DNA of 64,000 bases, from assembly GCA_001938485.1 (NCBI GenBank), contig MQRK01167730.1:4723-68722 (forward strand). The letters are read 5' to 3'. The notes under the pieces are model-generated. The model had not been told where the DNA came from. It saw only the letters and a program-made list of their open reading frames with translations, and did no database searches. Positions 1 through 55,036 of the stretch are shown here, piece by piece. The first letter of the stretch is position 1. The number at the start of each line of letters is the position of its first letter. Made by a program: the position numbers and the translations under genes. The stretch comes from Girardia tigrina. Its lineage: Eukaryota.

Positions 1-179
1 AAAATTTTTTTTATTAATAATATTATTTAACTATTTATAGTTATCATTTAGGAATTCAAATCGTTCGATTGATTTCGAATAACAGAAATGATAATAAAAC
101 CAAAATAAAACTTTTTAAACCTAATTTTAATACTTCTACACTTAATTATCACTTGATTTTCACAATATTTGTTCAATTT

Positions 180-424
180 ATTATTTTTTTCCGTACATCA
201 TTAAGACGGATTATTTTCCCGTATAAGACATAAGCTATTTAATTATAGTATATACGGTTTATGTAGAGCCGTAAATGTTTTAAAATATTGTATTGTCATC
301 GGAAGCAAGCCTGTATAAAAAAATTCAGTTCAATTGGATGACTGAAAGTGGTCGAAAAATCAATCGCAAGATTTGTTCCAGACAGACAAACAGACAAGAA
401 AGCAAGCTAATAAAAACGTGGTAA
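180..424. mobile_element. Non-autonomous Helitron/Helentron-like (HINE/DINE-type) repeat
   Basis: Ends in a (CAGA/CAAA)n microsatellite followed by GAAAGCAAGCTAATAAAAACGTGGTAA, the layout typical of invertebrate HINE-like repeats; left boundary approximate. Confidence 0.4.
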
Positions 425-537
425 AAATACCAATTTCCATCTGGTTGGAAGAATCACCTTTTTAAGTTCAGCATACTCAAATCAACATACAACATCAATA
501 CATTCATACATTCAAACAATTTAAAATATTTCTCACA
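423..537. mobile_element. Terminal piece of the solo-LTR family ending ...TTCCTCACA
   Basis: AAAATACCAATTTCCATCTGG...TTTAAAATATTTCTCACA closely matches 56281-56395, and less closely 49315-49416 and 51160-51268. Confidence 0.7.
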
Positions 538-548
538 CATTATATATT

Positions 549-585
549 GTGATCGATTTCGACAGATCAACCATCATCATCAGAC
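549..585 (-). ncRNA. Minimal type I hammerhead ribozyme (PLE family D), intact core
   Basis: GU-CUGAUGA-U-GAUGG(UUGAU)CUGUC-GAAA-UCGA-UC-AC: conserved core, stem II with two G.U pairs, palindromic stem III loop, AUC triplet; stem I is only about 2 bp. Confidence 0.8.
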
Positions 586-690
586 TAAACTAACAATAAT
601 ATATTCTCGTTTATATATCAAAGCAATATATATGTAATTTATAAATCATGAAAATACTTTTAATAAAGTTGAAGGGGATAGTGTTTGCAC

Positions 691-904
691 CAGGACTGCG
701 GAGTTGAACTAAAATTGTCCGACTCCGACTACAACTTCGACTCAGCTTTCGACTCCAACTCTGACTCCGACTCCTTTTTAGGTCAATTTATAATATTTGT
801 TGTTATTTTGGTCGGATTCGAATTTCACGACTCCGACTCCGACGCCTACTCCGATTTCAACTCAACCTTCGACTCCCGACTCCGACTCCGACCCCGCTGC
901 CCTG
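691..904. mobile_element. hAT-type MITE with internal GACTCC repeats
   Basis: Imperfect TIRs CAGGACTGCGGAGT / ACCCCGCTGCCCTG; 8-bp TSD GTTTGCAC (683-690) / GCTTGCAC (905-912); splits the PLE coding tail. Confidence 0.85.
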
Positions 905-1559
905 GCTTGCACATAGATTTTAGGATCCCAAGATTTGATCAACAATGCATCACACATCACCTTCTCCCAGTAATTTTTAGATTTTGAACACAAAATCTTA
1001 AAATTACTTACATTAACTTTACTGTTCAAACAGTTCTCCCTATTTTGAGCAAAATTACTATCACTTTCCCTTCGATAATATTCCTGAATCCCTTTACAGA
1101 GATGACGGGCAGTCTCTCCAATGTATGTAGCGTCACACTCATTACATTTATATTGATAAATTAAATAATTACATAAGCCATTTGGAGTGATATATTTACT
1201 ACTGAATGTTCACTAAATCGTATCAGCAGCAGCAACCAATTAAGAGTTTTTTTCCAAGTGATATTTAATTTAATTTTTTGATTTTTAATTATTAAAGAAA
1301 AATTTCTTAATTGGATTTGCGACCCCTGAAATTTTTGAGCTGAGAAAAATTCAGACGTACATTAAAAAATTTTTAATTCAATTAAAAATTTTAAAAAATT
1401 GATCAAAAAAATTATTATCGAAAACTTTGAATGAATTAATTTTTGTATTGTTTAAATATATTTGAATTATTATCGCGTTCTTTAAATTTGTTTTCTTTGT
1501 AATTAAATATTTGAAACCATTCTATTAACAAGAATGTTACTGTTTCAAAAGCGATAAAC

Positions 1560-1920
1560 AATGATTTTTCTAACATCACATATGAAGAAATTTTTGGAAA
1601 GAATAAATGCTCGAAAAATGCAAGAAAAAACAGGATCATCGATCTTGGTTTTATCGATTTGTTATTGGTCGTTTGCCGATGGAATTCGAACGGGAATCCG
1701 TCGAACTCGATTATCGAAAATATCTGATCGTGCAATCGCGAATCGCCGCCACAACAGGCGACTACTCGTAATTGGCAACGGCGCAATACAATCCCTGATG
1801 TCTCTATGTCGACCAGTCCAGAGAACGATCCCTGCCGATTTATTCGGAATTTCCCGATCCGAAATGCGGTCGGAGTCTGTGGACGACACGTTTGACCGGG
1901 ACAGACACGATAATTTATTA
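1560..1920. pseudogene. Unidentified GC/CpG-richer coding-like fragment abutting a PLE inverted repeat
   Basis: Sharp compositional shift from the AT-rich background and protein-like translations in several frames; family not recognised. Confidence 0.35.
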
Positions 1921-2448
1921 TGTTTGTATACATCATCATCAGCAATTTTCGGATGTTAGTATATGAATATTGAATTGTTTTAATAATACACTTTTAATAG
2001 ATATATTAACTTTAAAAGGAATATTGAAAATTAAATATTATAATTTATTAAAGTATTATTGGGTAATAATGGCAAAATATGAGTTTTCTGTTCTACAAAA
2101 CGGATTCGATTCACATTACGAACGACAGTTTTGTGAATCGCTACTAATAAGACACTACAACCCATCAATTAACATTCAGAATTGGCAAACTAAGGTTATT
2201 TCAATACTTAAAATTTTTAATTAAAATATTATTACCCAAAAAATTATTACCCATTATTACCCAATAATACTTTAATAAATAATAATATTTAATTCTCAAT
2301 ATTCCTTTTAAAGTAAATATATCTATTAAAATTGTTTTATTAAAACAAATCAATATTCATATGCTAAATATACGAAAATTGCTGATAATGATGTAACATC
2401 GAAATATGTCAATAATTATATAAAAAAAAGCTTTAATCAAATTATATT
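1921..2448 (+). mobile_element. PLE family B unit: inverted pLTR + GIY-YIG C-terminus + pLTR
   Basis: 1921-2080 is the reverse complement of about 2221-2400; the middle encodes EFSVLQNGFDSHYERQFCESLLIRHYNPSINIQ...LKIFN*; decayed hammerhead at 2378-2413 (CUGAUAA). Confidence 0.85.
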
Positions 2449-3220
2449 TTATATATATATATATATATTTGAAAAGAAATATTTTTGAACAAATAAATCA
2501 TAGGATATTTGAGAAATTCTTAAAAATAATTAATAAAATATAAAAAAATTATATTTAAGATGATCGATTCACGAGGATGATTTTTCGGTTGGCAATGTTT
2601 TTTAAAATATATATTTTGCTGACTCATTCGCTTTTTTAATGTTTGATATGAAAATTACAGATGAAAAATTATTAGCATTTGTTTTCTATCAAATGATAGA
2701 AAATAAAATCGAAAAATTAATAAAAATAATATCATTAACATATACTCTTTTTAATTACTTCTTCATTTTGAATATTAATTAATGAGTTATAGTGTCTGAT
2801 TAGCAATGATTTTCAATACAACCACTCATTTTGTAAGCCATAATGTGTTTGAAGAATAAAAATTTTATTTTTAAGATTTCTAAGTTTTTTTAAGAAGTTA
2901 ACTTTATAAACTTCTTTCGTTCAATCCAGTGTTTACATATTATTAGTTTCTATTTTGTTTTGAACTAGGATGAAGATAAGGACATATTTATAAAATAATA
3001 GAAATTATGACTTAGTTATACAATATTTTGGTAATATTACAAGAATTAAATATTAAAGAAGATTCAAATGAGAATCAGAAATTAATAAGAAAATTCAAAT
3101 GAAGAACTTAAAATATAAAACTTCTAAATGAATGATATAATTTTGCAAAATCGGGTTTAAATAAAAAAGTAAGATTAAATAAAATATTTCAGAAATTCAA
3201 AATTTATGATTAAAATAAAA

Positions 3221-3769
3221 ATAAACAAATAAATGCCATTTAAAAATATATTTTAGGATAATATATTTCGATGGTTTAACCGTCATCATCACTGATTATG
3301 TTCTTTTTTATTGCTTTTATATAAGAAATGAGTGATTGTGTAATCACTCCACATATACATTATTATGCCACATACATCGGAGAGACTGCCCGTCATCTCT
3401 GCAAACGAGTCCAAGAACACAGTCAAAAAGGGGGAAAGAGTAATATTTCTGAACATAAAAAAACGTGTAAATGTAATATGAGCATAAATGATTTTAAGAT
3501 TGTGTGCAAGCATTTTAAAAATTATTGGGAGAGAGTGTCATGTGAAGCATTGTTGATAAGATCATGTGATCCTAAAATCAGTGTTCAAACAGCACTCTCC
3601 ACTAATTTGTTAAGAGTTTTCGATTAGACTTACGTAAGGGATTACATAATCACTCATTTCTTATATAAAAGCAATAAAAAAGAACATAATCAGTGATCTG
3701 ATGATGACGGTTAAACCGTCGAAATATATTATCCTAAAATATATTTTTAAATGGCGTTTATTTGTTTAT
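3221..3769 (+). mobile_element. PLE family A unit: ~125-bp inverted pLTRs flanking a GIY-YIG fragment
   Basis: Arms 3221-3345 and 3640-3769 are near-perfect reverse complements; ORF 3328-3627 has ATYIGETARHL...EHKKTC...CEALLIRSCDPKISVQ; possible TSD AATAAAA (3214-3220 / 3770-3776). Confidence 0.92.
3695..3733 (+). ncRNA. Minimal type I hammerhead ribozyme (PLE family A), intact
   Basis: GAU-CUGAUGA-U-GACGG(UUAAA)CCGUC-GAAA-UAUA-UU-AUC: 3-bp stem I, perfect 5-bp stem II, palindromic stem III loop; predicted cleavage after 3730. Confidence 0.9.
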
Positions 3770-4499
3770 AATAAAAAATTGCCATATTTTTTCAAGTTAA
3801 TTAAAATAAAAATAATTAAAATTTCATACATATTCAGAAATAATAATATAAAGTCTTTTATAATGTGAGAATTATTAGGGATTAAAACGATGCATGCCAT
3901 TTGTATTGGTATTTTGGTTGTTCTAGATGCCGAATTGTTCGAGAATGATATATCTTTTTAATTAAAAAATAATATTTTAAAAAATTTTAAATATTAAAAT
4001 GATAATATTAATTTTAATTAAGCATAAACTAAATTTTTAATACCGATTAAATTTATTTTTTTCATATAAAAATCATTCAAAAAATTTTCCAGTAAACATT
4101 TTATTGGAATATATAAAATTTATGAAATAATCATGAAACCATAAATTTAATTTAATTGTAAAAATTGGAAATCGTTGTTCGAATAATTATTTTAAAATAC
4201 TTCATTTTAGAATCATTTTAAATGGGATGTAAACTAATGTAATCTTTGTTGAGTATCCTAAAGAAAAGTCGAATTGTGATATTAATAAAGATGTTGAAAA
4301 TCATATTTGTGTTCTTAAATCACTCAAAGTAATACAAAATTAAATTTGAAATTAAATACAATGAATTTTTCGTTTAAAATTTAGTTACGATAATGCTCGA
4401 TAACATTATCGCTTTACACTATGATCATCTTAAAAATCTTATGGGACATTTTATAACATAAAACAATTCTAGAATAGTGTTGATTATTATCCATTGTGG

Positions 4500-4838
4500 A
4501 CAGGAAGCCGTGTCTCCATGTTATTTTGGGAAGAAAAGAAATGTTTGTCAATTTATCATCTAAAGCATTCAGAGATTTTCCTTTTTGAATTACATCGGCA
4601 ATGTTTTTCACCATAATTCTTTGAACATCCTTCAATTCACAATTAATTTGAGCTAAATTTCTCGATGTTCTGGTGTCTGTAAATATCTTTTTTTGCCTTT
4701 TGACTATCTCTCGAACTCAATAAACGCATAAGGTCTTGATGCAATATCAAATTTACTGCCATATTCATTGTGAAATTTACCCATAATATCAGTCAAAAAT
4801 GCAAACACTATTTCTTTTGAAAATTCCCTCTCAGTTTC
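4500..4838 (-). pseudogene. SEC22B: Sec22 (longin R-SNARE) gene fragment, disrupted
   Basis: EREFSKEIVFAFLTDIMGKFHNEYGSKIDIASRPYAFIEF...KKIFTDTRTSRNLAQINCELKDVQRIMVKNIADVIQKGKSLNALDDK matches Sec22b SRPYSFIEF...[20 protein letters not shown]; frame is disrupted, no N-terminus or TM segment. Confidence 0.9.
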
Positions 4839-7214
4839 TATTTTTTGTAAATTTATTTATTTTAAATTGATTATAATTCAAATTCGATCAAGAGACAACT
4901 CTTTTTTTTAAAAAACTTTTATTTGTGATTAAAACTCACATTTTCCAATTAAACTACACACACACACAACATACACACCTTCAGTCAATCCCAATCATTT
5001 ATTCATTCTCATTTATTTACACACACCTAACTTTCAATCAATCACATTCTCCTCATACATTCACATGCAAACAATAAATAAAAATGAGGCTCACCATTCG
5101 ATCGAATATATTAATTATAGTGATTTATTCGATCTCTTTATGCGTGGAATTGAATTCGAATGATTCCACAAATTATATTCTATTATACACTGCGCGTTTA
5201 TTATTTAATTTATTGTTTTTATATTTAATCATTTAATTATATATTTTGTTTACATTTTACTGAAACTGGCAAAAATGTTCGGGCAAATCAGCAATTCTCA
5301 GCTTCACATTGATTAATAAAATATTAAAAACAATATAATTTTAACCCAAATGGAATCAAAAAGTACAAATGTACTTTAAGTCGCGCCTTACTTGTTTTAA
5401 GTATCAAACTTTCGATTTTCATAATAATATATGCGAATCTTAATTTCACACTTCCAACAAAAAACCAATATTTGTATTTAATTTACGTAGAAAGTCATAA
5501 AATTAATGTGTAAAATTTAATTTGAAAGTATAAATCTCATTTATTTTACTATGCAAATATTAGAAATTTCGTTGGTAATCAACCATAAATATTCTAGAAA
5601 CGCAAGGAAGTTTCATAGGACATTTCATCACACATGAAACACTGGAAATGTGATTTGATGTTACATAAACTGATGCTGGTTGATAATGAACGATGACATA
5701 TTTTAAGGGCAAAAATTTACTTTCCTAAAGAAAATGTGGGAAAAGGCGACAGAAATTATCAGATTAATTTATCAACATTAATTCTGTCTATTCTGGAACA
5801 AAATTTCCTTTCGTCACAAACTGCTAAGATAGTTTTACTTTATGTAATTGTTGAAGGATAAATGAGAAGCTTCAAATACTCATTGAAGAAATAAAATAAA
5901 ATCTAATTTAAATAAATTAGATTTTCAGAGTCTCTTTCTTAAATAGTTTACAAACTATGCCAGATTTTCTGAATTAATTTCTGAATAAATACCGTGTAAA
6001 AATAAATAAAGTGCTCTTTTTTATTTTTTAGCAAGTCGGTTTAAACATTTAAATCATTGATGTACAAAAAGACTCATACAAGTAATACGGGCCAAGGAAT
6101 ACTTCTTTCATCCAAGAATGACAAGAGTATTACTTGACTGCCGAATGACTAAATAATTAAGCAGATTCGTATAAAAAATTACTGTAATGTAATATTTTTT
6201 TAAATTTAGTTATTATAATTTATGTATACAAAAAGCTAATAAAAGTATTCAATTCCTAGATTTTTATAATTCAAAATTTTAACAAAAATTAATAAAAAAA
6301 CATAAAAATACATAAAGTTTATAAAACTTTTAAAAAGTTAAAAATGATTTTTTTTAGAAAAAACCACGAAAATTAAATAATAATATAAAACCAAAAAAAG
6401 TTTAGACAAATTAAAATTAATTTATTTTAATAGGAAAAATGATTAATAAAAGTTTTAAAATAAGAATTTTAAAATATGTAAAATATGTAAAACTTATAAT
6501 ATTTTTTATAAAATAATTTTAAAAGAAATTAAAGTTAAGTTAAATATTTTAATTAAGTGATTTTAAAACATAAAATATGTATTATAAATTCAATTTAATT
6601 ATATTTTATAAATAAATTTTTCAATTTAAAAAATTATAGTTTAAATTTAAAGAAAATCTAATTAATGGATTTTTGCGAAATGATTTAATTAACGAGAAAT
6701 TTGTTTAAATATGTTTATTATTATTAATAAACTTTTGTGTTAAAGATGAATTAGGACTCATAAATGTCAATAACGACAAATAATAACAATATTGCAATTT
6801 TATCTTGTATCACAAACTTGTTCCTCAATTTTCTCAAAAGTAATCGTTCTTTTATTATGTATTCAGTTGAAAGAATTTGCTGAAAAAATATTTTATGGCT
6901 CGGAAATTTTAAACGATTTATCAAAACTGAGGCAAATTACCACAATTAAATTAATTAAATGTTATATCTGTGAAAGTAAGTTTAGAAAACTAAACAAATA
7001 TTTTAATAAAATAAACGAAACCTTAAAATAAAACAATCCAATAAACATGATAGTCTTATGTTTTGTGTATAAAATACTAAGAAAAAAAGGATTAGGAAAA
7101 AAAATCAATTGGAGAGTCGTTTTAAATAGATAGAAATTACAGTAAACAGGAAAATCAAAATAATCTTCTATTAAAAGTAAGTCATGGAATTTCCTGGAAA
7201 ATGATAGACCCTTT

Positions 7215-7500: not shown

Positions 7501-8039
7501 TCAACACAAATTAAATTAATTTAAGAAAAGGAAGTTTAAAGCTCCATTAATTATAAAATATTCACATGTTTTTACTTTTTCAATCCGAAGAGGTGAATTC
7601 ACTTCCCCTTCAAGAATCCTTAACGAACGAAATGAATCTTACACAGATTGACAGTTATCGATAATTCTGCGAGAAACTCTTAATATCTCCAAAATTGCTG
7701 ATTCTTCCGCTGAGCTCCCTCAAATACTTGCCAGCCTTCCATTTTCTGGGTCTGACATTGACTGCTTTCTTCACGCCTTTGTTGTCAGTCCACAGGTTAT
7801 TCTGATAAACTCAGATATGGCTAGGAACACTGTTATAGAAAGGAGCATTCTCGAAGTCAAGATCTTTGTACACCTCTTTTAGTGGCTGGATGCTACTGGA
7901 TTCTTATCCATATATCTCTCACTGTGCTGGTACTGCAAAATGGTTTTATGTATTGGGCTGGAATCCACATATAGTGGGAACGTTAGGCTTATGTCTGAAA
8001 TTTGTTACTGCTCTGAGTAGCCATCTCCATGACTACTCG

Positions 8040-9350
8040 GTTACCTTGGATCAATAATATCTTCTTATGGAACTTGTGAGCCAGATATCAGAGAGAGAAA
8101 AAGGAAAGGGTTCGGTAAGCTACGAACTTTGATGCCTATCCTGAAGTGTCCAAAACTAACGATCCAAAGCAAGCGAAAATTGATTGAGAGTTGTATACTA
8201 TCTGTAGTATACTATGGGTGTGAAAATTGGAGGACTACCGACACACTGGTAAATAAACTGCAGAGCCTACACAATCATGATACTCGACTAGTGTTGCGGA
8301 TAAGGAAGGATCAACAGATCAGAATGGATACCATCACAATTGGGTTACCTCACCCAATGGACATTCTAACTAAGAGATGACTCCCGTTCCACGCTCTCTT
8401 AGCTACTGGCAATGGACCGATGATCCTGAAAAGAGTCATTGAATCCTCAATGACAGAGGGTAAGAAAATCTCAGGAAGAAAGAAGCAACAAATCAAAGAA
8501 TGCTTAAGAGTCGACACGGAATGGCTTTTTGGAGAAAATGCTTCCTTTGATGATTTTTTAATATTAATTCAGCAGGAAAGCGCTCAACTCAAGATGAAAG
8601 ATAGGATCGACTCATTAATATGCGAGAGGCGAATAATTGGGCGGAGATCAGAAGACATGCCAAAACTTATCAGACCACGGATGAAACTGTTTCAATGTTC
8701 ATACGAATCGGAATTTCAGGGAATTCGCGGAGCAGACAGATTTAAATCGACACGAAAAACAAGATCATAGACCAAGAGTCCCTCAAGAAGAAGAGCCGGA
8801 TGGATTCAATTGCCATCAATGCAGAAAAAACTACAAAACCAAAGGATGGCTCATAAGACATTTCAAAACAGCGCGCAAAATTGAAGATGAACAATTAGTC
8901 CAAATTTTTCCCAGCAGAACCAATCAGTCCAGACAATCAGAAGAAGGGAATCAACCACTGAACGCGATACCAGAAGACAGCGTAACTCAAGTACCAATCG
9001 TCGATTCGAATGCTGCTTCGATAGGAGAGTTAGAAGCGAGTCCTTTATAAACCCATCTGGACTTTTACCTGGACTAAACCTTACAGATCTAACTGTGAGA
9101 GGAACCTTCAAATGCCCGTTTTGCAGATGTGTAAAGTCCACGTACACAGCCAAAAGGATGCAGAATCATGGGACTACTATCCATGACTGGTCGTTTCTGA
9201 CTGGATTGCCAAAGCGTGTGCGGAAGTGAAAGGCCTGTAGGAGGCCTATCGCTTATAGACTTATTTGGTTTGGGTGGACCATCTAAAGAGCCTATAGGCT
9301 CAATACCATTCTTGAAAGAGATGGGAGGCCCAATTTAAGGAAATGATAAT
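8040..9350 (+). mobile_element. RTE-like non-LTR retrotransposon 3' fragment with C-terminal C2H2 zinc fingers
   Basis: RT thumb region KLTIQSKRKLIESCILSVVYYGCENW...KLQSLHN..RLVLRI, then EGKKISGRKKQ; fingers FQCSY../EFAEQTDLNRHEKQDH, FNCHQCRKNYKTKGWLIRH, FKCPFCRC...MQNHGTTIH; stops and frameshifts. Confidence 0.8.
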
Positions 9351-11152: not shown

Positions 11153-12220
11153 TTAGGTTGGTCGAAAAATAATGGCGGTTTTGGGACACAAAATGCCTGG
11201 ACAAATGCCTGAAAAAGTAGAAGTCCGTTGGCNAGAGGTCTGGTGAATATGGTGGATGAGGCAGGGTTTCATAGCCCAACTCATTAAGCTTTTGAAGAGT
11301 CACTTTTGAAATATGAGGTCTAGCATTATCATGAAGAAGGATGAGACTTTTTCGATTGACCCGGACAAAGGGTTTTCAATTTTTTATGCATTTCATCAAT
11401 TTCATGACAGTACCTCTCCACTGGGATTGTTTCACCTGGATTCAAGAAACTATAGTGGATGATTCCAGCATCACACCACCAAACTGTCACCATAACCTTA
11501 CGGGGTGTTAGTTTCGGTACTTCATCTTTGTCCAACCACTGTGNNNNNNNNNNNNNNNNNNNNNNNNNNNNNNNNNNNNNNNNNNNNNNNNNNNNNNNNN
11601 NNAAATGGATCGTTTTTATTGCGAAGATGATTGGCAGAACAAATTTAATAGCGTCGGTTCTTTTGATTTTCATTCAAATCACGTGGAACCCATTTATCAA
11701 GTTTCTTGATTTTTCCAAGTTATTTTAAATGATCCAGGACTGGTGAATGACTAATGCCCAAACCATCTGCAAGTTCTCTGATTATTGTACGGGGATCTGT
11801 TTCCACCATTGTCCTCAAATTGTCGTTGTTCACAACAACTGGACGACCACGACCTTCTTCATCTTCAAGGTTTTCATCTTCATCAAAAAATTTTCGGAAC
11901 CATCGTTGCACTGTGCGCTCAGAAGTTGTTCCCTTGCCAAACGCTTTATTGATATTGCGAGCCGTTTCTGCTGCTTTATGATCCCAGTTTAAATTCGTAC
12001 AAGAAAATTGCTCGAATTTTAATTTTTTCCATTATTAATTTAGCACCGTAAATATTCTAAAAAATAACAGCAATATGTTAATAATGGCTATAGGAATATA
12101 TAGCTAGGCATAAGATTTCAAATAATATCTAACACTAATGCATTTAAACTTATATACATATCAAACTAGATAAACAAAGTATAAAGCTCAAAAACCGTCA
12201 TTATTTTTCGACCAAACTAA
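11153..12220 (-). mobile_element. Mariner transposon, 3'-deleted and frameshifted
   Basis: 30-bp TIRs TTAGGTTGGTCGAAAAATAATGGCGGTTTT / AAAACCGTCATTATTTTTCGACCAAACTAA followed by TA; MEKIKIRAIFLYEFKLG, VQRWFRKF..EDEEGRGRP, KWVP, KVMVTVWW, HPPYSPDL. Confidence 0.95.
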
Positions 12221-12259
12221 TATAAAAAAAACTATACGCCATATTAAAATATATTTTTT

Positions 12260-12345
12260 TTCTGATAATATATTTCGATGTTTTTATCGTCATCTTCAGA
12301 TCACTGATATTTTAGCTTTTTTATTGCTTATATACATGTGATAAC
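12260..12345 (-). mobile_element. Isolated PLE family A-like pLTR with decayed hammerhead
   Basis: GAU-CUGAAGA-U-GACGA(UAAAA)ACAUC-GAAA-UAUA-UU-AUC; stem II mismatched; upstream TATATAAGCAATAAAAAA as in 3660-3700. Confidence 0.75.
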
Positions 12346-12734
12346 AGAGTGATAACAGTTATATACATTATTAGCCCTCTTAAAATAATCTGAAAGGATC
12401 TGAGATATTGAAATATGTCACTATTCAGAAATTTTATACAAATTCTAAAATATATCTTTTTTATCATATGAAGTTTGAAATCTGTTAAAATGATCAAGAC
12501 CTATCAATATTATTTAAAATCTTAAAAGAACAAGCATCGTAGAAGCGGAGATAAGTTATCATTTTATGTGAAGAAACATTCACCGTTAGATTCAATAAAG
12601 TTTGTGATTATATAAGGATAATTCATGATTTTTCTGTTTTAATATTCATCTAACTTTAATCACGTTTCATATAAATATTTAAAAAATGACGATAAATTAT
12701 TTTTAAGAATCAAGAAAACGTTCGTCATAATTTA

Positions 12735-12882
12735 TTGTGATTAATTTCGACAGATCAACCGTTATCATAAGACTAAAATTAGAATTGATTTACTCGCGTT
12801 TATATATCAAAGCAATTTTTCATAAATCATTGTATAATTTAAATCATGAAAAACTTTCAATAAAGTTGAAGAGGATGGTGTT
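12735..12882 (-). mobile_element. PLE family D 3' end with mutated hammerhead (CUUAUGA)
   Basis: Near-identical to 15848-15993; encodes TPSSSTLLKVF. Confidence 0.9.
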
Positions 12883-13949: not shown

Positions 13950-14540
13950 ATTGAGTTTCTTCTGAGTCTAGATATAACAGGAATATAATCAAATGTTTCC
14001 TTAACCATTATTGGTCCCTTTCTTCTACTTTTACTAAATCTAATAAAAGCATTGAAACATTGAGTAAATTGTTGAATTACAATGGATATCCTAAGTCTTT
14101 TATTGAGAAACTCCGTCATGACACTTTAGACAAAATTATTGAAAGAGAACGAATTACGACTACTTAGTTTTATGAGACAATTAATTTAACTATAAATAAA
14201 AGTGAAGGATCAGTCTAGAAAGGTCTTAAGATTGCAATTTTTTCATACGGGGTTACAAATTGAGCGGACATTATTCAGAAGGATTCAAACAGCTAAAGAA
14301 TTCTATTCTTAAAGCAACAAATAATGTTTTAAGTTTAAAAATCACTTCTCTGTCATTTAAAGTGGAAAATGTATTTTGAAATAAATCACCTACTCCTTTC
14401 CCTTTGTGTTCGGACGTGGTTTATCAGTATAAATTTAATGGATGCAATGCCACATACATTGGAGAGACTGTCCGTCATATCTACAAACGAGTCCAAAAAC
14501 ATGCTTATAAAGGGGATAAGAGTAATATTGCTGAGTAAAG
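13950..14540 (+). mobile_element. PLE fragment: RT thumb/linker + GIY-YIG N-terminal half
   Basis: LSKLLNYNGYPKSFIEK (PLE NGYP motif) and DVVYQYKFNGCNATYIGETVRHIYKRVQKH. Confidence 0.88.
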
Positions 14541-14564
14541 GAAAACTTTATTTGAGAATGTTAT

Positions 14565-14675
14565 TTGAGATAATCAAAATTTATTTCGACGATTTGATTG
14601 TCATCTTTAGAATAACTGATTTTTTAAAAAATAAAGTTTCTTATATATTGTCAGTAATGATTATGTAATCCATAC
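14565..14675 (-). mobile_element. Inverted PLE pLTR with heavily decayed hammerhead
   Basis: Minus strand GATTACATAATCA...TATATAAG...CTAAAGA-T-GACAA(TCAAA)TCGTC-GAAA-TAAA-TT, family A-like. Confidence 0.6.
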
Positions 14676-15429: not shown

Positions 15430-15847
15430 TGTGAGGAATGTTTTGAATTGTGTGTTGATATTGTGCATGTAGAATGTTGATTCGGATTGTGCCTCTCCTA
15501 CACAGATGGATGATTGGTATTTTCTTTGATTCTTACTAATTAAAAATAATTTAATTTAATTTTAAAGTAAAAAAGATTTAAAATAATTTTTGAATGTATT
15601 ATTTATTTTTTAAATGTAATTTAAAATTTTAATATATTAATTTAATATGTTATTTTTTTAAAAAAATGTTTAGATTTAATTTCAACCAATTAAATTCTTT
15701 ATAATTAATAATTTTTATTAACAAATTTTCATTTATTGAAAATAATTAGTTTGAACTCAGAAATATATTGATCAAGAGAGATGTCAAATAGCGAATGCGC
15801 TTGTGGTATTAATAAATGTTGTAAACCTCATATTGATGTTGTTAATA
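15430..15847. mobile_element. Solo LTR (~418 bp), inverted copy of 37222-37636
   Basis: TGTGAGGAAT...GTTAATA, colinear reverse complement of the 37.2-37.6 kb copy. Confidence 0.85.
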
Positions 15848-16175
15848 GTGATTAATTTCGACAGATCAACCGTTATCATCAGACTAAAATTAGGATTGAT
15901 TTACTCGCGTTTATATATCAAAGCAATTTTTCATAAATCATTATGTAATTTAAATCATGAAAATACTTTCAATAAAGTTGAAGAGGATGGTGTTTGCATA
16001 TTGATTTTAGGATCAAAGGATTTGATCAACAATGCTTCACACATCACCCAGTAATTATTATTCACACTCTCCCAGTAATTATTAAATAGTAAACACAAAA
16101 TCTTAAAATTATTTACATCGACTTTATTATGTTTACAAACAGTTCTTCCTATGTTGAGCAATATTGCTATAACTT
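15847..16175 (-). mobile_element. PLE family D 3' fragment with hammerhead motif (15847-15885)
   Basis: ORF 15955-16161 NFKILC...YWVMCEALLIKSFDPKINMQTPSSSTLLKVFS; AGU-CUGAUGA-U-AACGG(UUGAU)CUGUC-GAAA-UUAA-UC-ACU with a G10.1->A change. Confidence 0.9.
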
Positions 16176-17809
16176 TAATTATTCACGTTTCTTTATTTTT
16201 ATAATTTCTTGTATAAAATAAAATATTGATAATATATACATTAATAAAGTCATTTATTTTAATAGTGGCCTAAGTTCATTTATACTTAAATTGAAATGTT
16301 ATTGGGTTTGTGTGGCAATGAAATTTAAAATATAAGTACTCTCAAAAACTTGTCTCCAAAATAATTAATCTTCAAAGAATATAAATAACCTGAATTGTTT
16401 TATTAATAAATAATTTGAAGTGGAACATGTAACCCCTGAAAACTGACTTAATTAACCAATAGATTTAGGCTTCTTTCAAAATAAACGGCTCCATAAATTT
16501 TTAACATATTATTCTACATAGAATTTAATAATTTTCTTCAATATAAATTTAAACAATCCCTATAAAATAATTTAAAAATATTTATATAAATCTTTGGAGT
16601 TTTTGGTCTAGTATATAACTTATGAATCAATATTTAGAATAATAGGACAATCATTTAGAGATTAATTTAACATGCTTCAGTTAGCTTAGTAATCTTGCTT
16701 CAGTGTTGATTGTCTTCTAGTTATTTACAATTAATACCTTATATTACCAGTGGAATAAACCTTAAATTAAAAATTATTATTATATTTATTATTTGTTTCG
16801 GAATTTCAAGATAAATGTATATTGTAATAACCTCTCAATTTTGTTGTTAACAGTTTATTTTATTTATTTCTTTTAGTGTGATCTTTTTCCATTTACGTGT
16901 GTATACGTAAGCTGTACATACTCTGCAAACATGTGATGTTGTAATTTATTTAAATTTTATTTTTAATAACCCGTTGTTGTAGGGGTTTACTTTTTATTAA
17001 CTTTAGTTATTTTTTTATGTTATATTATTAAATAATTACCATGGACAATAAAGAATAATAAAAAAATCAATAGACAATGGATTTATAAAATTCAAAGATA
17101 AAGAACTATAATTCTGCATTATCGTCAAATTTATTTTACATTTGGAGTTCATTTTACAATCGAGGAGCAGACTTTCCTAAACACAATCGCAAAGGGCCCA
17201 GAACAGATAAACACAAATACTAAAGTAAAATTATTGTTATCATTCAAAACTATTGGATCCAACAATTTCAAAATCCAACTATTATGAATCAAAAAATAAA
17301 TAGGATTACATCTTCGTTCTCCTAACCAGAGTCAAGATCCTCAATCCTCAAACAAAGAAAAAATTTCTCTCAGAATTATTCACCGTCATTCGTTCATCTA
17401 TTCTACAAACGAAAGTAAAAATACAACAACTGACATTCTTTTTCCTGTGATTATCATTAACATCTTCGTTTTATCCTTCCGTTTTTCTAATTAATATTTT
17501 TTCTGTGCTTAGAGTTATTTTATTTTTTTTTGATTATTGTATAGCCAAGTTGGTAAAGACTTTTCTTTTCTAACCAGCTTGATTACACAATACCTTGTTG
17601 GTCTATTTTTATTTATAGTAAAAATAACAAATCGACACTTCAGCCACTTGGCGCTTCATTTGTTATTTTTAAATATATATATATATATAATAATTATTAT
17701 TTATATGTATAAACAGATATTCAATTTTTAAGGTACAATTTTTCGTTTTTATTTATTAAATGTTGCTTTTGCTATATTATATATTGTGTTATTATTATAA
17801 ATATGTTCC

Positions 17810-27917: not shown

Positions 27918-28700
27918 TTAATAGCAAAAACACGACATTTGTTAAATAAGCATTTATTTTTGCGACAATTAATTTCGACGGTATCGTCAGTTCTTAATAA
28001 AAAATGAGTTTTAAATCTGCTTATATAGGCAAGCAGTGTTTATGTCATCAATGGATTTTTATGTCATCTAAACACTCTCAAGAGGATTTTAAGCATTCCA
28101 TATTCCGAAGGATTTGGTCAATTTAAATGTTCAATTTTAAAATGTGTAAATAATGCATTTAATTTAAAAATAATATTACAAACATATAAAATCCAAAATG
28201 TATTTTGTAATAAATCTCCAACCTCATTTGGATTGTGTTCAAATCTCGTACATAAATTTACATGTAATGGGTGTAATGCCACATACATTGGAGAAACGTC
28301 ACGCCATCTCTGTAGGAGAATCGAGGAACATGGTCGGAATGTAGGTGTGAGTAATTTTGCAGAACACAGAAATGGTTGTAATTCTAACGAAAATATGATC
28401 ATAAAGGATTTTAAAGTTCTGTGTAATCATTTAATAACTATTAGTAGGATGATGGCCTGTAAAGCATTTTATATCACATCTTTAGATTCTAAGATTAATG
28501 TGCAAATTGGTCTCTGGACAATCCTGTTGAGCGCATTTAGATGACACAACAATCCATTGATGACATAATCACTGCTTGCCTATATAAGCAGATTTAAAAC
28601 TCATTTTTTTTGAAAACTGACAATGACGGTTATACCGTCGAAATTAATTGTCGTTAAAAATAAATGTTTCTATAACAAATGGCGTGTTTTTTTGTTTTAA
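27918..28700 (+). mobile_element. PLE family C unit: ~170-bp inverted pLTRs flanking a linker + GIY-YIG fragment
   Basis: Arms ~27918-28088 and ~28520-28700; open frame IPYSEGFG...NLVHKFTCNGCNATYIGETSRHLCRRIEEH...DSKINVQ; hammerhead remnants at 28617-28652 (+) and ~27965-27992 (-). Confidence 0.92.
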
Positions 28701-28879
28701 AACATAATTTTTCATTATTTTTTAATTTTTTGAAAAATTAATAACATCAATAAATTTTATAAAATCAAATTTGTTTTAAAACTTTGTTTTTTAAAATTGT
28801 TTTTTAAAAATTGTTTTAAAGTTATAATTGAAGAAACTACAAAATTTCTCAAAAGACAGAGAGAAATTTTCAATTAAAA

Positions 28880-29560: not shown

Positions 29561-30484
29561 ACTGATCGAAATTGGTATATTGAATCAAGAAATCAAAATT
29601 ATTTAACCTAATAGTATCAAAGCATTATCATCTCGAACACGAAAATTTCAGCGTTCTAACAGGACGTTTTTTAATCCGATCTTTTACTAGATAAAACAAT
29701 GTCTTTGTCTTTTCAAAAATCATTGGAGAAAATTTATGAATGATTAATTGTCACATTTAAAATCAACGATAAATTTTTTAAATTATCAACGGAATTAAAT
29801 TTAAAACAAAAAAATTAGAATTACAACAGAAAATGAATTGATAAATTCACTCCAGAAAATACTGTCAATGATAATTTGATATTCGTTTAAACCGTTCGAT
29901 ATTTTTATTCAAATTAACGTTAATGAGTTAATGAATTTTGAATTTGAATATAACGAAAATCAAATTCAATCAAACTAAACTTGAATTGATATTCTTGACA
30001 AATAATTTACTTTCAGTGTTAATATAATATAGTTTTCATATGTAAAAAGGAGAAAAAATAAATAAATGTAAAAACGGAAATTGTTGTCAAAGCCAATTTA
30101 AAAAAAATAATAAAATACCACATCATGGCAAAAAATAATGTTTGTTTGGTGATTGATGTGACTATTTCTGATTGGCCAGTTTGAATTTGTTTTCTTAATT
30201 TTTTTTATGAATTTTTGATCATTTTGATCGATTTATCCTTTTTTGTTTATTCGAATCAATGGAATTTTTGTTTTGTAGAGGGAATTTTTAAAAAGGTGTT
30301 CGAAATAATGTGAATTTTTTTTGGAAAGTTTGTGTTAAAAATTTGTTGACAAAATTAAAAAAAATTTTTTTGGTCAAGTGCCGTTTGTTTTTGAATCATT
30401 AAAATAAAATCAATATAATTGTAATAATTAAAAATTTTCAAATCATTGCTTACACATATTTTCGGTTTTTAAAATTTATTCGTA

Positions 30485-30762
30485 CGATAACTTCAATCAA
30501 AGTGTCATCGCCTACATCAAGAACCAGTGTCTCGTGCGCGCCACCGTCGGCATCCTCATCACCACCATCGTCAGCAACGGTAAGCTAGAGACGTGGCCCG
30601 AGCTTATCCAGCGACTCATCATGTGTTTCAAGTCCAATAGCGACAATCTGTGCGAGGGCGCTCTCGGAGTGCTCCAGAAGATCTGCGTGGATTCCAGTGA
30701 CCAGCGGGATAATTCGGCACTCAGACTACCCATCAAAGATCTGGTGCACGAGTTATCGTACG
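30485..30762 (+). pseudogene. TNPO1: Transportin-1 (karyopherin beta-2) HEAT-repeat fragment
   Basis: [32 protein letters not shown]...CEGALGVLQKICVDS versus TNPO1 FIKSECL[NNIGDSSPL][25 protein letters not shown]...CEGAFGALQKICEDS; about 9 codons deleted; markedly GC-rich. Confidence 0.93.
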
Positions 30763-31268
30763 TTATTATTGGGTAATGGCAAAAATATTTTAATTAAAAA
30801 TTTTAAGTATTGAAATAATCTTACTTTGCCCATTCTGAATATTAATTGATGGGTTGAAGTGTCTTATTAGTAGAGATTCACAAAACTGTCGTTTTCTAAT
30901 GTGAATCAAATCCCTTTGGTAGAACAGAAAACTCATCTTTTGAAATGGATGAGGTTCTATCCTTACAACATAACCAATGATCAAGGACCTTACTCGATTG
31001 AATTAACATTTAGAATGGCCAAAGTAAGGTTATTTCATTACTTAAAATTTTTAATTAAAATATTTTTACCATTATTATCCAATAATACTTTAACTAATAA
31101 TAATATTTAATTTTCACTATACCATTTAATGTTAATATATTTATTAATATTGTATTTTTAAAATAATTCAATATTCATATATTAAATATCCGAAAATTGC
31201 TGATGATGATGTATGCAAACATCGAAAAATGTTCAAAAATTATAAAAGCTTTAATCAAATTATATTTT
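30763..31268. mobile_element. PLE family B composite: minus-strand GIY-YIG tail (30763-30945), filler, plus-strand 3' end/pLTR (~31000-31268)
   Basis: RQFCESLLIRHFNPSINIQ...LKIFN on the minus strand; the plus part is colinear with 2170-2448. Confidence 0.88.
31197..31236 (+). ncRNA. Minimal hammerhead ribozyme (PLE family B), core intact
   Basis: UUG-CUGAUGA-U-GAUGU(AUGCAA)ACAUC-GAAA-AAUG-UU-CAA; stem III loop has lost the palindrome (inferred ancestral CAUG). Confidence 0.8.
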
Positions 31269-31394
31269 CAAAATATTAAACTTGCGTTCACAAGACACTT
31301 CTACTTGTCCTGAATTGCTGACAAATAAATTATCATTTCACGTGAAATCGTTAATATTATAAAAATTAAATAATACTAATTTTTATTGTATTTT

Positions 31395-37221: not shown

Positions 37222-37636
37222 TATTAACAACATCAATATGAGTTTTACAACATTTATTAATATCACAAGTGTATTCGCTATTTGACATTTTTCTTGATCG
37301 ATATATTTCTGATTTCAAACTAATTATTTTAATAAATGAAAATCTTTTAATAAAAATTATTAATTATAAGGAATCTAATTCGTTGAAATTAAATCTAAAC
37401 ATTTTTTTAAAAAAAGAACATATTAAATTAATATATTAAAATTTTAAATTACATTAAAAAATAAATAATACATTCAAAAATTATTTTAAATCTTTTTACT
37501 TTAAAATTAAATTAAATTATTTTTAATTAATAAGAATTAAAGAAAATACCAATCCTCCATCTGTGTAGGAGAGGCACAATCCGAATCAACATACAACATG
37601 CACAATATCAACACACAATTCAAAACATTCCTCACA
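37222..37636. mobile_element. Solo LTR with 5-bp TSD
   Basis: TATTAACA...TTCCTCACA flanked by TTAAA (37217-37221 / 37637-37641). Confidence 0.88.
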
Positions 37637-50756: not shown

Positions 50757-53700
50757 TGTAACAGTAATTATTAAACAAATTAATTCGCTTGTTTAAATAA
50801 ACTGTTAGTCATAATTATTAAGAACACTAACATGGCTTTTTAAACTTTTATTTTCATTACAATCAGAATTGTCTTTTGGACAACTCTCAGCAAAACTCTC
50901 GTCATTCGACATCGTTCTAAATTGATAATTTTTTATTAATGTTTGTTAATTTTTATTTACATATTAATTTTATTTAAAAATTATTTTATGTAAAGAAAGA
51001 ACATTTAATTAATTCAAAACTTAGTTAAAACTATTTATTTTATTTAAATTTTAATATGAAGATTTGAAAAGATTTAATATTTTTAATGTTTTTATATATC
51101 ATATGCTGTACTTTAAAATATAAATTATACTCGAATAATTATTTATCGTGAACATCTAAAATATCAATTTTCCATGTGGGTGGGAGAAACACATTTCCAA
51201 ATACTAAACTCAACATACAAAATTCAACAAACCAATTTCAACATACCAAATTTAAAATATTCCTCATAATAATAAATAAAAAATTTAAATTTGACTTCAG
51301 CATTTTGATTTACCATAATAATTGGCGTCATCAGCTGGATAAAAGGAATTCAATGGAGATTCTCGAGAAGATGGATATATCAGATCCGAACAGCCTTCAT
51401 GATTGGTATAAAATGTTTGAGATCTACTTCTCAATCCAACAAAAAAATCATAAGAAAATAAAACCGCACATTTCCTAACGATGATCGTCAAAGAAGTATA
51501 TTACCTAGTTCGAAATCTGGTATATCTTGAATCAGTCTCAAAAAAATCCGTTCAATCACTTCTACGAGCGCATATGCTACCAGCAAAATACGAGATCATC
51601 GAAAGGACAAAAATTCACAGCATCACTCGACACTCAGATGAGAAATACAAAGAAGTTTTTACTCCGGATTCAAATACAGGCTTCTAAATGCAATTTTGAG
51701 GATCAATTGGAAATTCAAATTAGAGATAGAATCGATGCGGGAATCAACAACACTGAAATTCAACAGAAGTTATTACGAGAGAAGAATCTCTCATATCACA
51801 AAGCCTGCAATATCTTACAAGAATATAATGATTTATACAATTCAACGACAATTCCAGTTTTTCAAGTGAACAGAGATGGCAAATACAAAAAGGACATCAG
51901 AAAAGAATATTCTCAAAAGAGAGTCCCTGGATATAAAGAAACATCAAATTAATATAATACCAGGATCAAAATCGGACTTTGTCAGTTTTGTGATGTAAAC
52001 ATTTTTGCTGTTCATATAAATTCAGGAACGCAATCTGTCATCAATGCAAAAAAAGTTCATATAGCAAAGGTTTGCAGATCCGAAAACACATAAGTTCATC
52101 CAAAAGCAGAAAATGCTTCAGAAGAGAACTTAGACACATAAATGTTATCATTTTCTATCGATTCAACTTTATCCATACATGAGGAATTGAGCTTCGATAA
52201 TGGGATAAACCATTAGTTTATTCTAGATACCGAAAGTCCAATCAACTTTGTGCTCATTTGCCTGCCGGAAAGTCTGAAATTGGGAAACAAACAACTATAT
52301 CGTCAACTTCAGTCGCAATACGCGGAGTATCAGGTCAAAAACATCTCGTATATGGAAAATACTTGATGAACGTATTAAAAGATGGAGGAAAGGTATCTTT
52401 AAATTTCTATATTACAGCAGACGGACCAAGTGTACTCGGACTGGATGGATTAAAAAGCTACAAATACTTTCTTTAGCAGTACAGTCAAATTCAGAGAATA
52501 TGGTACTTACAGGAGAAATAGAAAGTCTCGTATATACGTACAGCAATGTGAAAGGTGGTATCCAAATTCCACCAATTTCAATAAAAATTTCATCCAATCC
52601 AATCTTTCTCAAAGCTCAACCGAGAGCGTTTGCCTCACAGGAGTCATTTAAGAAGGAATTAGACCAACTAGTGCTTGAAGGAATAATCCAATACGTCGAA
52701 TCAAGTTCATGAGCAACTCCTATCGTAACGCATCTGAAACCAAACGGTCAACCAAGAATATGTGGAGATTATCGAATATCCATCAATCCACATTTGGAAC
52801 AGACCGCATCAACTACGCAACCAGTTGAAGAAATGTTTATTAATTTGAAAGGAAACTTATTTTATCAAACATCGATCTCACTCAAGCATTTCTTCAGATA
52901 TCTCTAAACGAAAAAAAACAAAAAAGCTGACCACCATCATTATATAACTTTTTCCCATTTAGATTATCAGTATATCCGAATGTTTTTTAGACAACAATTA
53001 ATGAAGTTATTAAAGGAATTCAAGGAGTCAGAGCATATCAACACGGTCTTATTGTTTTTGGAAAATCATTGGAAAAAAACAAAAGAAACCTGAAACAATT
53101 CAATGTGAAAATCAATGCGTCCAAATTCATCTTTGAGGTTCCAAAAATTAAATATCTGGACTATTGCATCGATGGAAACGGTATAACTCTAGATCAACAA
53201 AGAATTCAACCAATAATTAAAGCTTGAAAACCAACAATAATGATTGAACTAAAATCATTTCTAGGATTTATGCAATATTATGCCTCATTTTTCCACCATT
53301 GCAGTACCTCTATTCGAAATGCTCTTACAGAAACAATTCAATTGGAATCCGAAGGAAAATCAGGCCTGCGAAAATCTTGTATCATAAATAATTTCGAGAA
53401 AGTAGATGCTTCGGAATTTGAACAGGGGAGCGTTTTAGAACAGTCAGGTCAACCAATTATTTTCATATAACGTCGATTGTCTAGGGCAGAACGTCATTAT
53501 TCACAAACGCAAAAAGAAGCCCTAGCTATTCCCTGGGCCGTAAAACGATTTTACAAGTACCTATTCGGGAACAAATTTCTGATAACAACAGATCACAAAG
53601 CTTTGGAACACATATTCAATACAAAACAATCGTCATCTAAAACAGTATCCAGCATAATTCAAAGATGGGTTCTAATTATAACTCCATATAATTATGACAT

Positions 53701-55036
53701 TGAACACCGTTCTGGGGAAAATACCTCTATCCAGATATTCATACCAAGAGCAATCATGGAAAGAATGAAGTATTTTTATTATTAATCCATTGCCTATTGA
53801 CAGGAACTTATCGATCACCGAAACAAAAAATGCTTATGCTCCGATATTATCAGCGTTCAGAAGTGGATAGTCAATCACCACAAAGAAAAGATTTCCGAAT
53901 TCTATGCAAAACGTGAAGAAATATCTTTACAAACCGATGAAATCATTATGATTAATGATCAAATACTCATTCCTCCATGATGTCAACAAGAGATGCTAAA
54001 TCATCTGCATAAAAGCCATCTCGAAACAGACAAAATGAAAATGTTGGTGGCCAGAAATCAATCACTATATTGTCAACTTCGCGAGAAACTACAAGAGATG
54101 TGCAGAAAAACCTAGAAATCACAAGAATTGGAAGACATGACCGACAAAAATGTGCCCTATGCAATTAATCCACGCAGATTATTGTGGTCCGTTTTTGGGA
54201 AAATGTTTTGCTTTAGTAATAAAAGACTCATTCAGTTACTTCCCAGAAGTATGCTTAACACTAAATGCTACGGAAGATTTCATAAAACAATCTTTACAGA
54301 AAAATATTTCTAGAGAAGGAATAGCTCAAGTTCTAGTTACTGACAACGGGAAGCATTTTTCTTCTAAAAATCTACAAAAATAGCTGAAAACAATCGGATG
54401 CACTCCGACATATACAACTCCAAGGAGTCCACAATCCAACAGATTAGCGGAAAACTTCGTTACACCCTAAAATTGCCATTATTGCAATAAATCTAACAAA
54501 TTTCGAAGAATTTATTATTTCCATTGATAATATTTTGTAGCAGTATAGAAACGCAGTTCATTCAACGACAAAGAAAAGCCCAAAAATAATATTTAAATGC
54601 AGAATTCTTCGATCTTTCGGAAATATGGATGCAACAGAAGTCATGTTTTACAAAGACAACGAACAAATCCCAAAATATAGTATTATTCTAAATCATATTG
54701 GCAGTCGAATGTTTAACAATATGGATCGAGAAGACGGAAGCCTACATCATAGATATTTAGATCAAGTACACATTTCAAAATCGCAAGATGAAGCAAAGAA
54801 TTTGAACAATACAGAAACCCAATCAGAATCGACAAATAAAGAAGGCGAAAATTCTGAACAACGAAGAATTCAAAGAGAATGAAAACTTCTAAACTACTTA
54901 AGGGACTTCGAAACGTAAAGAGGAAGGAACTATAACACTAATTATTAAACAAATTAATTCGTTTGTTTAAATATACTATTTGTCATAATAAACAAAAGAT
55001 TTAAATTTGACTTTTGCATTTTGATTTACCATAACA
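50757..55036 (+). mobile_element. Full-length degenerate Ty3/Gypsy (Mag-like) LTR retrotransposon
   Basis: 106-bp LTRs (50757-50815 + 51274-51320; 54931-55036), TSD GATT, PBS TGGCGTCA at 51323, PPT AAAGAGGAAGGAA; gag (CNFEDQLEIQIRDR), PR (FILDTES), RT (ICGDYR), RNase H (YSQTQKEALAI, TDHKAL), IN (HADYCGPF, VTDNGKHF) in PR-RT-RH-IN order; many stops. Confidence 0.96.
50816..51268. mobile_element. Solo LTR nested in the Gypsy 5' LTR
   Basis: TATTAAGAAC...TTCCTCATA with TSD ATAAT (50811-50815 / 51269-51273); removing it restores the match to the 3' LTR. Confidence 0.9.

Follow-up and report, generated by a model that had tools for sequence, protein, structure and literature searches.

Introduction

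Penelope-like elements (PLEs) have been described with inverted pLTRs, a one-sided tail of ~30 nt, a target-site duplication (TSD), TATA/Inr motifs and hammerhead ribozymes on opposite strands 100-700 bp apart (PMC3846280, PMC8557442, PMC4209133). Craig et al. present an inverted 5'-truncated copy and a 30-40-bp tail as traits general to PLEs, and they report that PLE inversions trouble short-read assembly (PMC8557442). In Adineta vaga, Pen2a carries an inverted pLTR, a 9-bp TSD and an optional 31-bp tail on one inverted pLTR; TATA and Inr motifs and 22 ORF codons, tail included, are reported, as are palindromes located 5' in the pLTRs of related copies (PMC3846280). The minimal hammerheads of PLEs are marked by an extra base, a G10.1-C11.1 pair and a palindromic loop 3, and they cleave poorly and act as dimers according to Cervera and de la Pena (PMC4209133).

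Biochemical data come from an anole protein, a predicted dimer that nicks and extends both target strands and prefers AT-rich sites. Its reverse transcription (RT) starts at two internal sites bounding the tail, insertion proceeds in vitro without ribozyme cleavage, and Frangieh et al. map the tail ends to these start sites (PMC11167929). Craig et al. suggest that the tail reflects endonuclease (EN)-mediated resolution of an intermediate (PMC8557442). The mechanism that forms PLE inverted ends is called undefined in the papers cited here, and no paper on twin priming by Penelope elements was identified by title or abstract in a literature search.

Here we describe an inverted PLE unit from the planarian Girardia tigrina, located at 3221-3799 of a 64,000-nt stretch of DNA (the window, to which all coordinates refer). 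The unit is most likely a known by-product of PLE insertion and not a new kind of mobile element. We read it as very probably a single, fairly young, dead-on-arrival PLE insertion, comprising the last 435 nt of the element and an inverted, tail-less pLTR.

Comparison with described elements

Relative to Adineta vaga Pen2a_Av and its relatives as published (PMC3846280), the unit lacks a direct 5' pLTR and its ORF is cut to 263 nt. Its TSD is 12-16 bp long versus 8-10 bp, and its pLTR measures ~130-140 nt plus tail versus 193-218. Truncated Cercyon PLEs of Schistosoma mansoni (PMC4209133) bear dual minimal type I hammerheads on opposite strands, 100-700 bp apart in that species and ~440 nt apart here; the extra base before stem II and the palindromic loop III are shared, but Cercyon belongs to another family and one ribozyme of the unit is broken by a deletion. 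Poseidon PAc of Anolis carolinensis likewise has an ATG where stem II begins, the cut being reported 26 nt on in PAc and predicted 27 nt on here, and both systems have a tail bounded by two ends and an AT-rich target. PAc RT starts 111-118 nt into the ORF at an AC-rich stem-loop, whereas the ends seen here are 66 and 96 nt past the ATG and U-rich, and the unit is known from sequence (PMC11167929). Drosophila virilis Penelope with inverted terminal repeats (PMC2377424) features a 5'-truncated copy, inverted repeats of variable size and a 34-bp terminal extension, but that form retains a full-length copy and uses a TATA-less internal promoter.

Two classes of short elements also bear comparison. 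Animal non-LTR retrozymes (bioRxiv 10.64898/2026.07.22.740005) are, like the unit, short, non-coding and PLE-derived, with a type I hammerhead. They are described as tandem arrays, arranged head to tail, in which successive units carry working hammerheads, whereas the unit is inverted with one intact hammerhead, and no tandem array is present at the site. MITEs (PMC8969392) share with the unit a length under 1 kb, a lack of coding capacity and inverted repeats near the ends. At 579 bp with half an EN domain the unit is short and non-coding, but it is derived from a retroelement, its repeats are not strictly terminal and high copy number is not evident (one copy in 64 kb). Both arms and interior are PLE sequence, with no sign of a TIR/DDE-transposase origin. 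The unit does have the 5' truncation with inverted pLTR, the one-sided tail (optional in PLEs, at 30-40 bp) and the TSD expected of PLE insertions. Our literature searches, which miss most subscription papers, found no amplified family of inverted mini-PLEs.

Arms and genomic setting

The features of the unit are collected in Table 1. The inverted arms proposed in an earlier note on this DNA are real, and both ends of the insertion are pLTR, hence element 3', ends, as that note also held. The three substitutions and the slippage deletion that separate the arms would have been acquired after insertion. CpG decay was considered as the source of two G-to-A differences between the arms and found unsupported: the window is not depleted in CpG (observed/expected 1.04), which suggests little germline CpG methylation in the host.

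Table 1. Coordinates of features in and around the inverted PLE unit
Feature	Coordinates	Strand	Remarks
Target-site duplication, left copy	3209..3220	+	12 bp; 16 bp when arm-matching 3221-3224 is counted
Inverted pLTR arm without tail	3221..3345	-	122/125 aligned bases identical to 3640-3769, plus one 5-nt gap (E 4e-53)
Broken hammerhead	3257..3292	-	Lost 5 nt between short direct repeats; base 3272 mismatched in stem II
TATA-like box 3317-3323 and Inr-like motif 3290-3295	3290..3323	-	Face the left flank
Junction near-palindrome, 20 bp	3330..3349		Native short palindrome at inner arm end plus 4 snap-back bases
Junction filler, 19 nt	3346..3364	+	4-nt snap-back, 7-nt and 6-nt copies of 3368-3377, ~4 bases unassigned
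5'-truncated PLE ORF end, GIY-YIG C-terminal half	3365..3627	+	86 codons from 3367
3' UTR and sense pLTR arm	3628..3769	+	3640-3769 is the portion repeated inverted
TATA-like box 3662-3668 and Inr-like motif 3690-3694	3662..3694	+	Face rightward
Minimal type I hammerhead	3695..3733	+	Intact core at 3698; predicted cut after 3730
Putative ORF start of next tandem copy	3704..3799	+	ATG at core A9; by analogy with PMC11167929, PMC3846280
One-sided PLE tail, 30 nt	3770..3799	+	Between right arm end and duplication
Target-site duplication, right copy	3800..3811	+	Extends to 3815 at 16 bp

The window is AT-rich (GC 16-35% per 2-kb bin), contains 1,102 N in gaps and is dense in transposon debris, including a mariner HTH, a Ty3-type RNase H and others. 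Remnants include a mariner transposase at 11329-12031 (minus strand), a Ty3/gypsy-type element at 51100-54900 (plus strand) and a LINE-like or zinc-finger region at 8033-9229 (plus strand). A 418-bp repeat occurs in opposite orientations at 15430-15847 and 37222-37636 with 95% identity; one of the two adjoins a pLTR, just a few bases beyond the predicted hammerhead cut site. Two intronless, apparently frameshifted pieces of host genes, which lie near or against PLE units, may be retrocopies: a probable Sec22/synaptobrevin-like piece at 4417-4856 (minus strand) and a probable importin-beta/transportin-like piece at 30432-30763 (plus strand).

Read-through RNA would pair arm to arm in a predicted duplex of 121-127 bp, in agreement with the long dsRNA anticipated in the earlier note. 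Hairpin RNA would be expected from the unit only upon read-through transcription from the host. A search for a host gene spanning the unit gave none: the Sec22-like piece is frameshifted and without introns, and 1-4400 contains no recognisable downstream exon.

The GIY-YIG stub and its family

The interior of the unit is a GIY-YIG stub, as first described: open codons at 3367-3624 are followed by a stop at 3625-3627, and 3365-3627 constitutes the last 263 nt of the ORF. Its Penelope origin is borne out by 62 of 86 residues (72%) identical to the C-terminus of P0003, an RT and EN protein in which Pfam identifies RVT_1 (E 1.8e-12) and GIY-YIG (E 4.6e-5). GIY-YIG was not recognised in a Pfam search with the stub alone, and a PDB search returned distant reverse transcriptases only. 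The stub groups with P0001-P0005 (support 96/90). It starts just ahead of the second GIY-YIG signature motif, and lacks the first motif, an in-context start codon and the CxxC that is present in 13 of 13 relatives compared. We infer that a stub missing the first motif and the CxxC cannot act as a nuclease. No functional product is encoded by the unit.

The parent appears to have been an endonuclease-bearing PLE, most like the Penelope/Poseidon type. No reverse transcriptase is present within 3221-3799, and the fusion of endonuclease to reverse transcriptase is seen through the likeness to P0003. Penelope/Poseidon is set apart from Neptune, Nematis and Naiad/Chlamys by a C-terminal EN together with the absence of a cysteine-rich, Zn-finger-like RT-EN linker. 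The C-terminal position of the EN excludes Naiad/Chlamys. RT-EN linkers contain 0-3 scattered Cys residues in 13 relatives, a comparison made up of sequences other than named references. The pLTR, with its predicted minimal type I hammerhead, is likewise that of an EN+ PLE.

Hammerhead ribozymes

The whole window was scanned for consensus hammerhead core motifs together with a closing stem. Three matches were obtained, all within PLE ends, one of them at 3698. The right hammerhead consists of a 3-bp stem I, an intact core and one extra base ahead of a 5-6-bp stem II (stem II z = -3.19), and the palindromic hexamer 3724-3729 stands for stem III. In the left arm, stem I has lost its 5' strand, and the core its C3, to the 5-nt deletion (fold z = -0.34). 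The left ribozyme is very likely dead, by analogy with the anole element, where the C3G mutation abolishes hammerhead cleavage (PMC11167929). The intact right ribozyme and the loss of the core C on the left agree with the original description.

Rfam reports no hammerhead in the window at the gathering threshold, nor over 3100-3900 at E<=10, where four unrelated weak matches appear; the ribozyme call thus rests on motif and covariation. For the latter we aligned 8 of the 12 hammerhead-bearing arms, excluding the broken left arms and a damaged right arm at 2370-2410. Pairing is observed in 83% of 88 cells versus 70.6% in shuffled alignments, and the covariation score of 0.383 was reached by none of 500 shuffles, nor by slid controls. 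Two other measures are less telling: pairs with a change on both sides are marginal (42/500 shuffles) and further pair types do not exceed the shuffles (220/500 as high). All three stem I pairs show changes on both sides. The loop III palindrome is perfect at its innermost pair in seven of the eight copies, with three pair types (AU in 3/8, UA in 3/8 and CG in 1/8).

We note that the left hammerhead region has a deletion or break affecting its core or stem II in all three units of the window that retain one (3221-3345, 27926-28088 and 1920-2072). Two of the three right arms are damaged too, hence a bias is not established.

Promoter motifs and a putative ORF start

A TATA-like heptamer is present in 9/9 pLTR copies examined. 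A spacing of -30 from TATA to start is a mark of promoters, and in the right arm the central A of the Inr-like motif falls 30 nt after the first T of the TATA-like box. These motifs may act as promoters in both arms. Since the two arms read outward as sense pLTRs, both sets face the flanks and point away from the interior, leaving the unit with no evident means of transcribing itself whole. A sigma-70 promoter scan was set aside as meaningless for a eukaryote; the junction hairpin was confirmed by it.

The frame that opens at the ATG at 3704 runs for 22 codons to 3769 and for 32 with the tail, and it could represent the ORF start of a next tandem copy, in line with the anole element, whose ORF starts at stem II (PMC11167929). 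The count of 22 is shared with A. vaga in number and not in anatomy, the published A. vaga figure including the tail (PMC3846280) and the unit reaching it before the tail. At the peptide level, the 32-codon alignment does not rise above shuffled controls (555/5,000 as high; 2,099/5,000 for the tail alone), and its placements on full-length relatives are scattered and uninformative. A K7-Y8 register is found in 2/5 of the nearest full-length relatives versus 1/92 others, a post hoc count based on 97 of 261 proteins (790-900 aa with an M start). An LP motif that the tail appeared to share was given no weight once the focused peptide test proved not significant.

Boundaries of the insertion

Arm-to-arm homology stops at the same outer base, as the earlier note observed; the insertion itself probably extends past that base to 3799. 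It is bounded by an exact duplication of 3209-3220 at 3800-3811, which four bases common to the arm end stretch to 16 bp; this 16-mer occurs in two places in the 64-kb window, 3209 and 3800 only. Against random pairs with any offset of 0-60 allowed, duplications of at least 16 bp were found in 0/16,860 local and 0/19,928 window-wide comparisons, and of at least 12 bp in 2/16,860 and 1/19,928. The heptamer AATAAAA proposed in the earlier note as TSD does flank both 3221 and 3769. Such a match is seen in 0.09% of random flank pairs (0.4% with slack) and the window contains 204 instances of the heptamer; the match is probably coincidental, and that assignment probably wrong, the 12-16-bp duplication sitting 30 nt further right.

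Between the right arm and the duplication lies the one-sided tail, which is identical at 19/30 positions to the sequence past the arm end of another inverted unit at 27926-28730 (null probability 0.001 at one offset and 0.007 for the best of nine). Given the right arm with its 30-nt one-sided tail and the 12-16-bp duplication, the latter is best read as the TSD of an insertion spanning 3221-3799. This extent (579 bp) is most likely the true one, and not 3221-3769. The right repeat consequently ends 30 nt inside the duplication, and the claim of terminal repeats at both ends does not hold. A search for a TSD at the units at 27926 and 1920 revealed no clean duplication.

The junction and its filler

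The filler between left arm and stub is mostly accounted for by exact matches to sequence within 30 nt and reads as a snap-back plus templated slippage. Read on the bottom strand, it resolves into successive switches between nearby templates, among them a 9-nt match to 3647-3655. Because a coherent 5' to 3' reading exists for each strand, the filler does not separate the two priming mechanisms considered below.

Within the window, the 32-nt junction has a single match at up to three mismatches. Its best partial match, 16/17 bases at 12361-12377, lies directly behind a diverged solo arm at 12218-12334 and covers the bases at the filler-stub border. Its score of 27 exceeds the null maximum of 26 and was reached in 0/2,783 non-overlapping and 0/25,017 sliding windows; the same score behind seven other pLTR copies ranges from 10 to 16. 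Allowing for eight copies and four junctions, p is below about 0.04, a rough and post hoc estimate. The match is in part a local duplication of the TATA region of the solo copy itself, and 49413 holds a chance match to a 13-mer of the filler.

The solo copy (12218-12377) is a pLTR in inverted orientation, the most similar of the solo arms, and ends at about the same proximal site; past the match, neither a stub nor a right arm follows. Compared with the right arm, it shows differences at 12/97 aligned bases plus gaps, versus 3/125 arm to arm. Of three scorable variants, one is in the left-arm state and two are in the right-arm state.

Other Penelope-like ends in the window

Self-search and tblastn identify 12 PLE 3'-end loci in the window, with two further short matches uncounted. 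Four are inverted units (3221-3799, 27926-~28730, 1920-2458 and 30764-31276), with four different junctions; their forward pieces start, and their inverted pieces stop, at differing places. The three further units have arm divergences of 7-15%, and their inner arm ends are not at the 3330-3349 palindrome. Units 1920-2458 and 30764-31276 belong to one subfamily (81-91% identical) with different breakpoints. In the former, the pieces are joined via a 5-nt microhomology and the left arm goes no further than the base of hammerhead stem II. The unit at 27926-~28730 has arms about 85% identical and a forward piece that begins in the RT-EN linker and is 78% identical to P0001. Both its hammerheads are damaged and it has no clean TSD; its arm end and apparent right-only tail are at the same pLTR place as in 3221-3799.

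No second full copy of 3221-3799 is present in the 64 kb. A recurrent layout with private junctions points to integration by-products, the opposite of MITE-like amplification, within these 64 kb. The suggestion of a MITE-like, remobilised unit is not sustained, given the single junction match, the separate junctions of the three other units and the non-terminal repeats.

Some further loci are arranged differently. At 14319-14671, a forward ORF fragment abuts the outer end of a pLTR in the opposite orientation; on its inner side this pLTR ends close to the short palindrome at which the unit's left arm also stops. On the minus strand, another subfamily is represented by three plain 5'-truncated PLE ends (546-1209, 12726-12882 and 15848-16176), the first interrupted near 690-900 by a short insert with 6-bp repeats.

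Origin of the unit

Direct observations are the anatomy of the unit, its family, the 12-16-bp duplication that accompanies a tail on one side, and a layout that recurs with differing junctions. That the unit is a one-off integration by-product we hold with considerable confidence. Two-strand priming and fold-back, both raised in the earlier note and both sensible, are the mechanisms to be weighed within this reading, where the former appears the likelier and the latter a serious but lesser contender. In two-strand priming, the element's GIY-YIG protein would make two nicks in an AT-rich target, one per strand and 12-16 bp apart. Both 3' ends would then prime RT on pLTR RNA at start sites 30 nt apart, the distal one on the right (3799, giving the tail) and the proximal one on the left (3769, giving none). 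The first cDNA would halt 263 nt into the ORF end and the second 13 nt beyond the stop codon, at the short palindrome, and the two would be joined following a 4-nt snap-back and a short templated filler. Three substitutions and a slippage deletion would later mark the arms. The two-site start and the two-strand extension have been seen in vitro with the anole protein, as reported in PMC11167929. A TSD longer than that of the A. vaga paper, an ORF start at the arm end that is not significant as peptide, and the 16/17 junction match behind the solo arm, which a one-off event does not predict, count against this account.

Fold-back involves the same single insertion with only one cDNA, which would copy from the tail to 3365, slip, re-anneal via the palindrome and copy itself to the proximal site, where the endonuclease would resolve it. 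The inner arm end does coincide with the palindrome, the bottom-strand filler forms coherent local switches with the 9-nt match to 3647-3655, and resolution by EN is what Craig et al. propose for the tail. Frangieh et al. nevertheless see extension on both strands and tail ends that are RT start sites, and the palindrome is not where the inner arm ends of the other three units fall; we consider fold-back possible but doubtful.

If the match at 12361-12377 reflects real descent, the unit, or an arm plus junction, would have been recopied in trans by the family RT/EN from read-through RNA, with arms regenerated or homogenised each round. The junction bases behind the most similar solo arm, with a score unreached in the null, and the one left-arm variant of that copy would fit such inverted mini-Penelopes, and in A. 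vaga pLTRs are reported to suffice to mobilise intervening DNA in trans (PMC3846280). The solo copy, however, does not continue into a stub or right arm, agrees with the right arm for the remaining two variants and, from its divergence, seems older than the junction; it would be too old to inherit it unless arms are homogenised. The test is also post hoc, the match is partly a TATA-region duplication, a filler 13-mer recurs by chance and the promoter motifs face outward. We regard a propagated junction as improbable.

An artefact of assembly or amplification fold-back is suggested by the gapped assembly and by the trouble that PLE inversions cause in short-read assembly (PMC8557442). The arms differ by three substitutions and a deletion, a duplication and a family-like tail bound the unit, and three more units show arm divergence of their own, which makes an artefact highly unlikely. 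Scarcely credible, and slightly less so than an artefact, is a true MITE with arms recognised by a DNA transposase: the unit is short, non-coding and bounded by long inverted repeats and a duplication, but its internal sequence is all PLE-derived, its right repeat lies 30 nt inside the end, no second full copy exists in the 64 kb and self-search shows no similarity to the mariner-like remnant of the window.

Implications

As a PLE insertion the unit is ordinary, its layout being already published. It is a compact record of one integration, with two ends 30 nt apart, a staggered cut and a templated filler, and this record is consistent with the two RT start sites and the extension of both strands that were reported in vitro in 2024. 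Annotators should be aware that such inverted units resemble MITEs when viewed in a dot plot. With four in 64 kb, they seem to be plentiful in this genome, which would be useful for junction statistics on PLE inverted ends. The finding would matter more only if the junction were amplified: an inherited junction would make the unit a retrotransposon-derived MITE mimic and provide a handle on how PLE inverted ends arise.
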